From: Escherichia coli
Lineage (GTDB): Bacteria > Pseudomonadota > Gammaproteobacteria > Enterobacterales > Enterobacteriaceae
Assembly: GCF_002854065.1 (NCBI RefSeq)
Contig: NZ_CP024148.1
Direction: 5' to 3' (one strand)
DNA: 62,585 nucleotides
Shown: positions 6,001-12,000 of the stretch, one piece after another
Position numbering within the stretch: position 1 is the stretch's first letter
How the letters are laid out: every line of letters begins with the position of its first letter
Made by a program: the position numbers

Positions 6001-9000
6001 AGCGAATACAGAACGTGTCGTTTCAAAAGCAATTACCGGCTGTGGTGTCTTCCGTGATATACCACAAGTAAAAATCAATCTCATCGAAACAAGGAAAATT
6101 TTACAAATCGAACTGGCTTTATCCATTGCTAACTTATCTGAGGCGAATCCAATTGAGATACGAAAAAAAATCAAAAGCATTGACCGACAATTATCTTCAA
6201 CCTCAAAAATCAGAACTACATTATGAAAAAAAACGACGATTTAATCACTTTACCATCTCATAACAGCCACGCTCTCGATTACATCATTAAAAAAGCGTTT
6301 ACACCACGTAAAACCAAAACATCGACAGCGACCCACAACGTTTATAGTTACAATAAAGAAGAATCCACATTAAATTTCCAAAAAATTGGAGAAGCAATTT
6401 TTTTCGGCACAGACCTGGTAATTAAGCTGAAGCCAAATATTAGTGCCTCTGGTGAACTCTTCATCTGCCAGAAGGACTAAGCTATGAACATTGTTTCAGA
6501 ATTTCTTGAGAAAGTAACAACCATTGTTGAATCCACAGCGGCGACGAACGCCGCTAAGGTCGCACAGGCAATATCTCCTACATTTTTTGCGGCTATAGCC
6601 TTATACGTTATTTATCTAATATATGAAATCACGTATGCCCAACGTGACATCCTTATGAACGAGGTGACGAAGAATATCGGTGCATTCGCCCTGGTTGGTG
6701 CATTCACTTATTCAGCGCCTTATTACAGCCAGTTTGTTATTCCTTTTGTAATGCACGCTGGCTCCGACCTTTCTGCTGCTGTTACTGGAGGTTCAGGAAC
6801 TGCAACCAGTGTTGATAATTTGTGGAACGCTCTATCTACGAATTTAAACAACTTCCTTGATACAAGTATGAGTATTTATGGAAAGTTCCAAATTGCTGAG
6901 AAAATGGGGGTTTATCTAGTATGGGGGATTGGCTATATCGGCGGAATGCTTCTCATCTATTACACTACTGTTTTCTTGACACTATCAACTTTCATGGTTG
7001 GAATTCTTCTTTCCGCTGGCATTTTATTCATTTGTTTCGCTCTATTTTCATCGACCAGAAATATGTTTACTGCATGGGTCGGCAGTTGTCTCAACTATAT
7101 ACTGTTAAATTTATTCTATAGCATATCATTTAGTTTCTTAATTAGTTTCGTTGAATCAGTTGTCCCTGTTAATGGAGATATAAAACTATCTATTGTAGTT
7201 TACTTTTTCCTTATTACTATTATTTCCATATTCCTTATAGAACAAGTTGGCACACTCTGTTCTACATTAACAGGTGGGGTAGGTATAAATGGCCTTACAT
7301 CAGCCGCTAATGGCTTTGGAGGTAAGGTTGCATCTGGTTTTATGCGAGCATCAGGACTCCGATCTTTCACCAATGGATTTGCCAGCAAAATGCCAAATCC
7401 ATTCTTTAATGCAGGAAGTCGTTCTGCATCAGCATTAGTTCAGGGATTAAACCGTGGAAGTAAACTTAAAGCGGGGTGATTAACATGAAAGATAAAGTAT
7501 TATCATTTCTCTTTGCTGGAATAATTACCGTAACATCACCATCAATCTTTGCATCTGGTATTCCAGTAGTAGACGTTACAGCGATAGCTAAAACAGTTGA
7601 AGAAGGGCTAAATCGTGCCGCTGAAGCGGCAAGACAGCTTGAGCAACTCAAGCAACAATATGAACAGACCATAAGATACGCTGAAGAACAGAAGAAAAGA
7701 CTCGAAGGCTTCACTGATTTCAGCAATGGCTTTGATAGCGCATCCAGCTATATGAAGGATTCTCTATCAACAATAACAAATAGTGCAAAATCAGATCTTA
7801 GCTCTTTGCGATCGCAATATGACTTATCAAGCAACATTGCAGAGACGCAACAAAAATATGATGCAATCCTGGCTAAGATCAAATTCTATGAAAATTTCAA
7901 CAATGAAATGCAGGAAAGGGCTAAGAGATTAACCACGTTACAGAAGGAGTTCGCGTCAGCAGATACTCCGCAAAAAAAAGCTGACTTATCTAACCAATTG
8001 AATACAGAAAAATTGACAATGGAGCTACAATTGAAGCAATATGATATTGCAGAGAGACAGCTAATCGCGTCTGAAAATGCAAGACAAGAGGCTGTTAGTC
8101 GAGAAAAGTTTAAATTAATGATGCAATAGGTGTTCGAATGAAAAAATTCATAAGCACTTTAACTATCTTGTCATGCTTCCTTTTAGCTGCTTGTGAAGAC
8201 AAAGTTTATGATGTCAGTTACTACACTGAACATCTTGAACAAGCCCAAGATGTTGTCGAAAAATGCAGCAAAGGGGATATGTCTGGTCAAAACTGCGAAA
8301 ATGCGCGTGAAGCCATTCAAAAAGAGCAATCGGGTAAAGCATTTAAAAATATGATGCAATAATCCTTCATTAAAAACAGCTCGCAAAGCGGGCTTTTTTT
8401 GGCTGTACGCAGTGACCAGTTGATAAATAGTTCTAATGTTCGTGCTGCATTAGAACAACGCACAAAAAGAAGAGTACAAGAAGACAGTGCGGGATCTAAT
8501 GGAACGTTTACAATAGAATCACCTTCCCTATAGCAAGGTGATTCTATTTAAAAGAATACCCGCCTCGTGCGGGTCTTATCTTGCTTAAAGATCTATGAAA
8601 CCTCCGGCTTCGGGTATTAAACTATAACTTGCTTTGGCAAATATTGTTTCATTGACTTCATGGAATCTTATTTTCTCCGCCTGTTCATATGTTACAGGGA
8701 AGAACACGCCCCCTGGCTCATTAAACATCATAAAATCACCTTGCATTGCGTTACAATGACAACAATGATTCGCGTAATACTTCATTTTTGCTGTTTTGCT
8801 ATGGGATGGATAATATAATTTTGAATACTCATTAATCCTTGAGAGAGCAGAGGTTGAAATTATTTCAATTTTCGTTAAATCAGTCCACCATACTCTACTG
8901 GTTAACCACCGATAAATCATATTTTTCTTTGAATCAAAATACTCCATACCCTTAGGGGAGGATGTTTCATACCATTCATCTAATATACAATCTTCCCATT

Positions 9001-12000
9001 CGGCAGGATCAACTCCCCAAATAACGTCTCTATACTTATACCAACGAGGTAAAAAAATACCAAACACAGGAGTTGTTTTCTTACAGCGCCAACAAGACTG
9101 GTGACTTTCCGCAATATAAAAACGTTGCGAAAAAACATTGTAATCATGTTCATTTAATTCTTTTATCCACCGAATAAAATAAATTGGATTTTTCCCCTGT
9201 GGAACAAACCATTTCCGTTGTTCTTGGTCCCATTGCGCCCCTTTTTGTTTAGCCAAATCCTTTTCTTCAAACGGAACATTTAAATAAAACCGCGCCATAG
9301 CCAACTTAACTCCAGTATTCTGTTCTGATGATGCACCAGGATAGATATCAAAACTAAACAAAGAGTGCAATTCCGCCTTTAATGGCTCATTCATACCCGC
9401 CTCGTGCGGGTTTTCTTTTGCCTGAAATATGGAGGAACACCATGAAATCCATCATTTTATCGATGGTTGCCGCAAGTGCTATCGCACTCTCTGCCCCCGT
9501 ATATGCGTCTGATCCGTGTGCTTCCGTTCTTTGTCTGTACGGTAAAGCTATCGGTAGCGGCGGCGGGAGCGAATGCAAAAGCGCCGAAAAGGACTTCTTT
9601 AATATCATCAAAAAGAAAAAGGGATCTATTCGCTGGAGCAAAACCTTTGATGCCCGAAAAGCGTTTCTTAATCAATGCACGACCGCAGACCCTGCGGCGA
9701 TCTCAAAAATCATGAGTAAGTTCGGACGTTCCTGGGGTTAACCATGAAAAAGATCATTATTATTCCCACCACATTATTGCTGAATGCGTGTTCCCATGCC
9801 CCTGAACCCGCACAGGCAAAAGGAGGTTGGTATGAACTGAATACCACAATTGAGCAGGTAAGGGCAGACACATACTATAACGGGGTGGTCCTTCAGCAGC
9901 CCGTGTCACAGCCAAACAGCACTGTTCAATACAGCAATGATAATTATCTCAAAAAGGAAGCCATAAACGTAACTCCCGCGCCTCGTATTGCAGAAACCGT
10001 AAAACCACGTTCTGAGCAATCAGCGACAGCGCCAAAAAACCAGGACAGTAATAATAGTTTTCTGAAGCCAACAACAAACAGCATAACTTCATCTGGTGAG
10101 ATAAAAACAGCAGCCAAAGGAGCAACTGAACAGCATTCTGAACAACCAGCACTCCCTCCCGCAAAGCCAATCAGTAGCAACAACCATCAGGCACAAACGG
10201 CACAAAAGACTGATCAGCAGACAAAACCGCGTCCTGAACAACCACCGCTAATGTCAAAAAGCGGTTTTCTGAAAAAAAACGCTAACAACGCTGTTCCGGC
10301 CACCACGCTTACAGGCCCATCAACACCTGAAAAGCAAATTTACTTTGTTCGCCATGATGGTAAAGGCTCGCTGCAAAAAGCATTAAAAGAAATTGTCCCA
10401 TCGGACTGGACGGCTGAAATATCCCCGGAGGTAACGAAAACTTTCCGTCGCACGATATCCTGGCAGGGCAACGATCAATGGCCTTATGTCCTGGATAAAA
10501 TGCTTCGCAACTACGGTCTGACGGTAATTAAGAACACCGAAAAAAGACATCTTCTGATTGATTTTCAACAACAGAAAGGGAAAACATCACAAAAAGCACC
10601 TGTATCTCCTGACAAAACCCCTGCATCTCCTGTCAGGACACCAGTTTCCTCTGACAAGTTACCTCAAAAATCGCTAACGCCTGTCACCGTTCCGCAAAAA
10701 CAGACAGAAAAACTCACCTGGAATCTTAAAAAAGGTTCGACGCTGCGGGATGGCCTCACAGAATGGGCGTCAAGTTCGCCGTGTGGTAATTCAACCTGGA
10801 ATCTTGTATGGGATACTCCTGTGAACTACAGAATAGATGCTCCTCTTATTTTCCGGGGAAACTTTGAATCTGCATTAAAAGATACGCTGATGCTTTATCT
10901 TTCAGCAGATAAACCGTTATACGCATTCAGGAATATTGCACAATGCGTAATCACAATTAAAGACACACAACAGGAGTAATCGCTATGGGTTGGTTCTTCA
11001 GCTTGCTCCTGATATTCCTGTCAATAGGCAGTTACTATCTGACAGATAACAATAACCAAACCATACAGCGAATGAAGTTGCTTCCTGCAAAACAGGAAGC
11101 AATTGAATTTGTCCATTTCGCAAATGTTATCAATGACTATCTTTATAAATATCCAGACAAACGTAATTCAGGAGGAACGTTAACATCTGAGCAAATCGGT
11201 ATAACACCCGTTTATGATATTCATCATATTATTTACGGTAAGCGAGTTTATATCTGGTCTGCCGATACAGAAGGTCTGATGTCTGCTTTGCAGCAGCAAA
11301 CAAAACATTCAGCAATGTTAGGAAAAGTAAAAAATAAGAAGATTGTCGATAATCAGGGGAATGATATGGGCGTTCCCGTTCCTTCCTCCATTCCAGAAGA
11401 GGCTATTGTACTCATTAACTAAATATCCCCTGACAAGGGGATTCTGAACTGGAGTCTGCATATCCGACACATCATTATGTGGGCCGGATATATCGCTACG
11501 GCGCGGACTTCAGTCCAGAAAATCTTTACCGGAGATACCCATGCAGGATAATGATGATGTCAGCGAGCTTGATATTGCCACTCGTGAAGTCCTTATCTTA
11601 CGATGCAATCTTATTCAGCTTGCTTCTGAATATATAAAAATAAATCCTCTTAAAAACACCCGAATCTACACAGATTTAATTCATCGTTCAGCAGATGTTA
11701 TCAAAAATATCGAACAAGGTAACATCCAGAATAAACATAATTATCTGTCACAGGATGTAAAACATACGCTTGTTTTATACGACCTGTACAAATCAGACTT
11801 TGAACAATGTCCGGGGGCAAAATCCCTTATACCTGTCAGGGAAAAAATTGTCTCGCTGAAAGAACTTCTTTCCGGCGCTAATGAGCTGGACAGTATCGTT
11901 CGTCGCCCCCGCAGGAAAAAACGATCTTCACGAATTTAATATCAGGAGATAAATCCCTTATGCAGTTATCAGCGGCTGTTCTGGCAGCACTGATAAGTCA

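Follow-up and report, generated by a model that had tools for sequence, protein, structure and literature searches.

The window analyzed here, 62,585 nucleotides of Escherichia coli contig NZ_CP024148.1, is an IncI2 plasmid carrying mcr-1, and its type IV secretion system (T4SS) cluster contains a single reverse-strand gene bracketed by two hairpin-forming repeats, which the original prediction took for an acquired cargo or defense-type gene in a repeat-bounded cassette. This gene is ygiA of IncI2 plasmids (R721/TP114 nomenclature; TP114-006), an accessory gene located in a genuinely variable hot spot. By sequence comparison, the two repeats are related copies of a backbone linker with a terminator-like hairpin and a ribosome-binding site; they do not mark the ends of a mobile element, nor are they terminators without a common origin. 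As a whole, the explanation that we consider somewhat probable is that an accessory ygiA lies in a variable spacer in which terminator-linker copies have been reiterated, that homologous recombination reassorts the modules of this spacer, and that YgiA is an establishment-type protein.

The features of the locus are as follows.

8138-8362, plus strand: eexN, encoding an EexN-family entry-exclusion lipoprotein of 74 amino acids (aa) (NCBIfam NF033894, 68 bits versus a cutoff of 33); left border of the variable spacer
8378-8394, plus strand: terminator-like hairpin followed by a run of seven T residues, directly 3' of eexN (consensus scan)
8512-8525 and 8535-8548, both strands: palindrome with 14-bp arms and a 9-nt loop, lying between the eex region and ygiA as a second terminator-like hairpin, bidirectional
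8556-8589, both strands: left hairpin copy (19-mer, 8556-8574; stem, 8558-8563 and 8569-8574), then a degenerate T-rich tail
8585-9394, minus strand: ygiA, 269 aa, DUF5710 plus Cys4 zinc domain (open reading frame [ORF]; in hundreds of IncI2 records, PGAP annotates it as "DUF5710 domain-containing protein")
8615-9142, minus strand: predicted C-terminal Cys4 zinc domain, aa ~85 to 260, with CxxC knuckles at 9083-9094 (C101 and C104) and 8753-8764 (C211 and C214)
9164-9292, minus strand: DUF5710 domain, aa 35 to 77 (Pfam PF18974, E = 6e-17, model positions 1 to 43 of 44)
9393-9473, plus strand: right hairpin copy and linker (19-mer, 9393-9411; linker, 9395-9473)
9442-9741, plus strand: kikA/trbM, 99 aa (TrbM/KikA/MpfK annotation in matching plasmids); right border of the variable spacer

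ygiA as an accessory gene in a variable spacer

The gene at 8585-9394 occupies the same position as ygiA of TP114, between trbJ/eex and yggB/kikA, and is that gene, and the same protein was found at 98 to 100% identity in hundreds of IncI2 records. The reported gene order of TP114 is traA (virB6), trbJ (virB5), TP114-005 (accessory), ygiA, yggB, and kikA (trbM) (PMC7508951, Suppl. Data 1). In the same data set, ygiA is listed as a soft-core "DNA primase" with a BLASTx identity of 98%, and high-density transposon mutagenesis scored it as nonessential for maintenance and for conjugation, whether in vitro or in situ, while kikA was required for in situ conjugation only. As originally predicted, ygiA is the sole credible minus-strand gene among the T4SS genes, i.e., between ~2.1 and ~31.2 kb (~2100-31200).

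We then compared the locus among 516 plasmid records that matched a 3.5-kb query around ygiA (hereafter IncI2 records); every inspected record was typed as IncI2, and 513 were typed as conjugative. A tblastn search with the C-terminal domain located ygiA in approximately 344 of them, approximately 233 with the allele of the window and 111 with a second allele, and the gene was missing from the IncI2 backbones L001, L002, and L004. ygiA is thus an accessory gene of IncI2 plasmids, absent from some members and dispensable for transfer and maintenance, and is neither universal nor essential for transfer, the two properties that the original prediction had named as evidence against itself. Its proposal of an acquired cargo or defense-type gene holds as far as accessory status is concerned, but no PADLOC match was obtained in support of defense. 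The annotated IncI2 relatives showed no fewer than six arrangements of the interval from eexN to kikA.

Empty spacer: L001
Second eexN, then the yggB lipoprotein gene and a Phd/RelE toxin-antitoxin pair: L002 and L004
ygiA alone: the window
ygiA, yggB, and the toxin-antitoxin pair: L003 and L011
ygiA and yggB without the toxin-antitoxin pair: L012
80%-identical ygiA allele with an intact ORF in otherwise window-type DNA: L013

The Phd/RelE pair directly follows the yggB stop codon, between ...TGAttccc and ctgatattt... (L002, 3858-4500, versus L012, 4229-4250).

Hairpin repeats as copies of a backbone linker

The 19-mer ATACCCGCCTCGTGCGGGT is present as two exact copies in the 62.6-kb window, at 8556-8574 and 9393-9411 on the plus strand, with a chance expectation of 0.01. 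No third copy was detected in the window even when 3 mismatches were allowed, and the hairpin pattern ACCCGC-N5-GCGGGT had no window site beyond the two repeat copies. A dispersed family of REP (repetitive extragenic palindromic)-like repeats was rejected because the hairpin has just two copies in the plasmid. The positions and hairpin nature of the 19-mers in the original prediction were therefore correct, and the repeat proved to be longer than described, extending to 34 nt at 85% identity (8556-8589 versus 9393-9426).

Each copy consists of a 6-bp stem with 5 G-C pairs and a 5-nt loop, and this structure forms in the minimum-free-energy RNA folds of either strand. The left hairpin sits 10 nt past the ygiA stop codon, which is crossed by the degenerate tail of the repeat, and the right repeat shares 2 nt with the annotated ATG of ygiA. 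A consensus terminator scan flagged 8558-8574 on both strands and 9395-9411 on the plus strand, and in both copies a GC-rich stem-loop is followed by a T/U-rich tract, as in intrinsic terminators. The operon-end position and the bidirectionality of the left copy are also in line with known intrinsic terminators. The hairpin departs from them in being joined to the ribosome-binding site and the opening 11 codons of the following gene and in being duplicated along with these. An Rfam search of 7800-10200 gave no credible known RNA family.

The right copy belongs to a 79-nt linker (9395-9473) composed of the hairpin, TTTTCTTTT, a GGAGG ribosome-binding site, and the ATG plus ten codons of kikA (MKSIILSMVAA). 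This linker was found 5' of kikA in all 516 IncI2 records, including those without ygiA, and at 901 places in total (~1.7 per record); from a count of 901 places in 519 records, about three-quarters of the records seem to have a second copy. Indeed, a second full copy precedes the module of the yggB lipoprotein (211 aa), e.g., at 3177-3254 in addition to 4502-4580 in L002, with equivalents in L003, L011, and L012; the signal peptide of YggB therefore starts with kikA codons, the first 11 codons being common to both genes. The linker is truncated at the 3' end of ygiA, where it comprises the hairpin and ~15 nt.

Overall, the hairpin was observed at the eex/ygiA, ygiA/yggB, and module/kikA junctions, and as a single copy where the spacer is empty. 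Gene and repeats are thus not present or absent as a unit across IncI2 backbones, since one hairpin stays where ygiA is missing. The stem was invariant in 18 IncI2 hairpin copies and the loops of the left copies varied (CTCGT, CTCGC, CTCAT, and CTCGA), a pattern that would be expected from selection on the hairpin itself. The possibility of ordinary unrelated terminators, also raised by the original prediction, is borne out with respect to the terminator-like character of the repeats but not with respect to their being unrelated. Outside IncI2, the first 38 nt of the linker (hairpin and T-tract) were matched at 92% in the megaplasmid of Pantoea sp. SS70 (NZ_CP117200.1, 489120-489157; H190), which is possibly a similar terminator.

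The separate palindrome noticed earlier at about 8512-8549 was also confirmed. The search tool reported it with 19-nt arms of 89% complementarity (8507-8525 and 8535-8553), and its fold z-score was -4.4 to -5.0. It is present in the window-type left flank (L003 and L012) and absent in L011 and L013.

Recombination at the locus

The ygiA-less records listed by megablast aligned to the window only from 9394/9395 onward, with ~99% identity, and to the left of this point they were 85 to 92% identical or unalignable. L012 and L013 were ~100% identical to the window on both flanks and 54 to 95% identical inside ygiA. The drop in identity was abrupt at the left hairpin in L012 and occurred ~40 bp further left, before the palindrome, in L013. 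Recombination at the locus follows the linker. We infer that these patterns reflect homologous exchange between coresident IncI2 plasmids, in which crossovers would fall in the conserved linkers and in the 5' part of ygiA, which is likewise conserved.

It could be argued instead that ygiA is a true mobile cassette, moved as a unit, and that the hairpins are site-specific recombination sites of an attC-like, Xer/pdif-like, Rci/sfx-like, or HUH transposase type. The exact direct repeats enclose a single ORF almost to the nucleotide, the presence of ygiA varies among IncI2 plasmids, one allele-swap breakpoint lies at the left hairpin (L012), and the alignments of ygiA-less plasmids begin at the right hairpin. 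However, ygiA-less plasmids keep a single hairpin as part of the 5' linker of kikA, and a precise ygiA-minus junction (synthetic left flank, one hairpin, and kikA) was covered at 80% or more by none of the 516 records. The hairpin has only two copies in the whole plasmid, the toxin-antitoxin module is not inserted at it, and no long ORF besides the annotated transfer genes lies within several kilobases. We therefore consider the cassette very unlikely, and the claim of a repeat-bounded cassette gives way to that of linker copies, one of which is present in every record.

Candidate recombination systems were rejected one after another. Integron attC sites are imperfect palindromes of 57 to 141 nt with RYYYAAC/GTTRRRY cores, and an integron cassette also needs IntI and attI; the ygiA repeat is a 17-nt perfect hairpin in which no attC cores were seen by inspection. 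pdif modules are bounded by 28-bp XerC/XerD (dif-like) sites, and no dif-like site was found in the window at 3 or fewer mismatches. Rci, the plasmid's own site-specific system, acts on shufflon segments that lie between sfx repeats in inverted orientation; its involvement was rejected because the perfect sfx cores (GTGCCAATCCGGT), ten in number and in alternating orientation, all fall in 30978-33707 and bear no sequence relationship to the ygiA repeats, which are direct. No ORF near the locus, where ORFs were not individually annotated, was noticed as a possible recombinase gene, other than the putative Rci gene that adjoins the shufflon. The ygiA locus resembles integron cassettes and the pdif modules of Acinetobacter in that modules of one or a few genes lie between repeated structured sites and vary in combination among related plasmids, but it differs from both in having no attC- or dif-like sequence, dedicated recombinase, or precise presence/absence pairs, and in that its repeat is native to the backbone.

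Under the explanation that we favor, in which linker copies separate reassorting modules, the left hairpin, the 14-bp palindrome, and the eexN terminator would stop the convergent eex and ygiA transcripts, and the right hairpin would insulate kikA from transcription arriving from the left. On the ygiA mRNA, the right hairpin would place a GAGG Shine-Dalgarno sequence in its loop, directly before the annotated ATG. The repeat copies would date from the addition of modules, in the course of which the linker was duplicated, and would now serve as short patches of homology, through which ordinary homologous recombination between coresident IncI2 plasmids could reassort modules and alleles, and would not be sites for a dedicated recombinase.

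YgiA and its predicted zinc domain

The DUF5710-like motif of the original prediction was verified by profile search, and in an AlphaFold2 model of YgiA (overall predicted local distance difference test [pLDDT] score, 88) this domain forms a small beta-alpha-beta-beta-alpha unit with pLDDT values of >90. The Cys-rich C-terminal region (CWRC and CCHC) likewise turned out to be a conserved Cys4 site of a protein family. When searched against a library of 1.84 billion proteins, the C-terminal domain (~190 aa) matched 782 cluster representatives, 156 of them at E values of 1e-10 or less. Family members are typically ~200 aa in length, and 91 of 133 have an N-terminal DUF5710. Among 133 family sequences, C104, C211, and C214 are invariant, C101 is at least 90% conserved, and the same level of conservation (≥90%) was seen for Y206, N209, G219, D220, and F231 (consensus, YxMNHCxHCxAxQGDF...EPGGAF). 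Both CxxC motifs are located at turns beside beta-strands in the model. With two family-conserved CxxC knuckles at beta-hairpin turns, the region has the features of a Cys4 zinc ribbon-type domain, and zinc binding is predicted.

The zinc domain had no meaningful match in Pfam, NCBIfam, PADLOC, PHROGs, or PDB sequences, and the PHROGs match for YgiA covered the DUF5710 part only. No PDB fold match, nuclease folds included, was obtained for the YgiA model, and the hits of an AFDB50 fold search were confined to the family of YgiA itself, under propagated "primase/TraC" names. Thus, of the C-terminal nuclease or zinc finger fold suggested earlier, the zinc site is retained and the nuclease is not. 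The Cys4 domain defines a large, uncharacterized family that has no Pfam model and apparently, from structure modeling, a new fold.

Comparison of the two IncI2 alleles of ygiA revealed 0 synonymous and 2 nonsynonymous changes in the first 32 codons, and 6 synonymous and 18 nonsynonymous changes in codons 131 to 180, which form a lineage-specific insert of the zinc domain. The gene could alternatively start at Met33 (ATG at 9298-9296). Met33 may be the true start, since the typical family member has its first residue ~20 positions ahead of the GAxWD motif, a 237-aa version exists in UniProt, and residues 1 to 30 have low pLDDT values.

Distribution of the family and possible role of YgiA

The zinc domain was detected in 442 plasmid records, of which 394 were typed as conjugative and most were IncI2, and in none of 50,697 phage records. 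DUF5710 is also found in TraC primase, in exonucleases, and in proteins with a zincin-like metallopeptidase or DUF1738 annotation, which we read as ArdC-like. RP4 TraC and ArdC accompany DNA into recipients. DUF5710 appeared in only one paper in our literature search, as a fusion to Rep_3 initiators (Rep_3-DUF5710) (PMC11233732), and we found no paper on ygiA function, on ygiA together with IncI2, or naming PF18974. These plasmid proteins (RP4/R702 TraC, zincin-like/DUF1738 proteins, Rep_3-DUF5710, and exonucleases) share with YgiA the 44-aa module with its KGAxWDxxxKxW motif, whereas YgiA is without their catalytic domains and has as a partner the Cys4 domain, for which there is no Pfam model or solved structure.

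YgiA homologues lie in accessory regions, and their genomic contexts are diverse. One lies after traY in an IncI1-like tra region and adjoins a GNAT toxin-antitoxin pair; others adjoin RelE or HicAB pairs and have NYN-domain genes in the vicinity. In Erwinia, a homologue is located beside traM, between traM and the tra operon, and adjoins a helix-turn-helix gene, and an IncF homologue lies upstream of traM near antirestriction, DUF3560, and methyltransferase genes. The contigs of metagenomic relatives were mostly too short for context, and two of these relatives adjoin a T4SS coupling-protein gene. One metagenomic family member, P0021, has a C-terminal Lar-like restriction-alleviation domain at aa 250 to 318 (CPFC...EAAEKWNNR; PHROG 599, E = 5e-7). 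Lar-family proteins are, like the zinc domain of YgiA, small zinc-ribbon proteins of mobile elements, but YgiA itself does not match the Lar models, and the link is a single fusion.

We also noted that, in two unrelated plasmids of Vibrio harveyi and Campylobacter coli, the predicted RNase genes with an NYN domain (L009, 5747-6550; L019, 7523-8065) are located immediately after the DUF5710/zinc-domain gene or ~2 kb away from it. In the Logan contigs L005 to L007, a DUF6710 gene always precedes the closest homologue outside IncI2, P0003 (48% identity), and in L005 this pair is slightly downstream of a T4SS coupling-protein gene.

Based on these contexts and on the domain composition, YgiA would combine a DUF5710 adaptor with a Cys4 zinc domain and act as a DNA- or replisome-associated factor aiding the plasmid after entry, by establishment or restriction alleviation, with the zinc domain as its rapidly diverging specificity part. 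We offer tentatively, as possible and short of probable, the view that YgiA is a nonessential establishment factor of this kind with a diversifying zinc domain. It seems rather doubtful that the more far-reaching picture is also correct, in which the Cys4 domain founds a plasmid-restricted family with a new fold, YgiA acts through its DUF5710 adaptor on incoming or replicating plasmid DNA, and the linker is a homology patch for allele and module swaps in an arms race with recipients.

Other roles for ygiA have to be weighed against this one. The idea that YgiA, with its zinc ribbon and DUF5710, is a DNA-binding regulator of neighboring transfer or pilus genes would suit the divergent orientation of ygiA relative to kikA-pilL, the predicted zinc-binding domain, and the Erwinia homologue between traM and the tra operon beside a helix-turn-helix gene, and loss of a repressor would score as nonessential in the TP114 screen; it is nevertheless unlikely, since homologues are spread over many plasmid backbones and settings that are unrelated, some without transfer genes nearby, DUF5710 is otherwise joined to DNA metabolism enzymes, and about one-third of IncI2 plasmids transfer without ygiA. 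We regard as quite unlikely that ygiA is a defense gene against phages or competing plasmids. It is indeed an accessory gene in a hot spot beside entry exclusion and, in relatives, toxin-antitoxin modules, two homologues are near NYN-domain genes, and the zinc domain diverges fast between alleles, but none of the 5,027 PADLOC models (PADLOC-DB v2, E ≤ 1) matched, and this single small gene encodes no recognizable effector domain (nuclease, NTPase, or toxin). The absence of the family from the phage genomes, and of a PHROGs family for the zinc domain, is uninformative with regard to defense, yet it shows a plasmid-specific role.

The DNA primase named by database labels and by the TP114 table is hardly tenable, although the names "DNA primase" and "TraC" are attached to YgiA and its relatives in NCBI and UniProt. 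The likeness to TraC is confined to the 44-aa DUF5710 module, which lies mid-protein in the 1061-aa TraC homologue of R702 (~aa 527 to 572). Neither YgiA nor its 133 relatives have a Toprim, DnaG, AEP, or PriCT domain, and no sequence or fold match to solved primases was obtained. The primase label, which derives from DUF5710, is thus effectively refuted at the sequence and fold level.

Several observations weigh against the explanation of reiterated linkers, reassorting modules, and an establishment-type YgiA. The terminator and ribosome-binding-site roles are predictions from consensus scans and folds. The kikA ATG is only 31 nt from the right hairpin, so a strong terminator would need read-through or an unrecognized promoter for the downstream transfer genes, and up to four terminator-like hairpins lie on the path of kikA-pilL transcription; with so short a distance, the repeat hairpin may be an attenuator or mRNA stabilizer and not a full stop. 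No sigma-70-like promoter was found by consensus scan upstream of ygiA on the minus strand; the best candidate by eye, ATAGCA-17-TAAAAT inside kikA, matches at 8 of 12 positions. The toxin-antitoxin insertion is located 15 to 25 nt upstream of the hairpin, so module junctions are not always at the hairpin, and on its right side the ygiA allele swap fades out within the gene, with identity recovering gradually toward the ygiA 5' end (L012 and L013). As to establishment, ygiA of IncI2 sits in the T4SS cluster and not in the leading region, YgiA itself matches no antirestriction or defense model, and the IncF homologue is on the strand opposite to its antirestriction, DUF3560, and methyltransferase neighbors. 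Besides, the Lar fusion is a single protein with a TIGR03655 score below the NCBIfam cutoff.

Among the major carriers of mcr-1 colistin resistance are IncI2 plasmids, about two-thirds of which contain ygiA, a gene that is unstudied and mislabeled "DNA primase" in many records, a label removed here. ygiA was already known as an unstudied IncI2 accessory gene; the Cys4 domain family and the probable linker-associated reassortment of modules are new. The supposed cassette repeats are reiterated terminator-like elements of the backbone and not a new mobile-element signature. The Cys4 domain is widespread and plasmid-only, and the linker may be a preferred crossover for the entry-exclusion, ygiA, yggB, and toxin-antitoxin modules of coresident IncI2 plasmids. 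If YgiA does aid establishment in a new host, this would matter for the spread of mcr-1 plasmids and for their host range.

Neighboring genes and minor features

Three further genes were annotated in the window.

6484-7479: traA, VirB6-like (annotation in matching plasmids)
7476-8129: trbJ, VirB5/TrbJ-like (annotation in matching plasmids)
42669-44294, minus strand: mcr-1, MCR-1 family phosphoethanolamine transferase (NCBIfam MCR-1, 1303 bits versus a cutoff of 1100)

The region of traA (VirB6) and trbJ (VirB5), 6484-8129, diverges by 8 to 11% between IncI2 types (versus L001, L002, and L011), eexN is unalignable between types, and identity is ~99% throughout the DNA beyond 9395 on the right. 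This fast-diverging, exclusion-related block on the left is set apart by the right hairpin from the conserved block on the right.

A frameshifted remnant of a second eexN was recognized at 8440-8517 on the plus strand, with ...NVRAALEQ... in frame 0 and ...KEEYKKTVRDLMERLQ* in the next frame. This two-frame remnant matches the C termini of the tandem EexN proteins in L002, and a pseudogene fragment therefore sits 3' of the 74-aa EexN gene of the window. In addition, the ends of trbJ (...FKLMMQ*, 8109-8130) and eexN (...FKNMMQ*, 8342-8363) form a direct repeat of 20 to 22 nt with 85% identity, a further short duplication at a module boundary.

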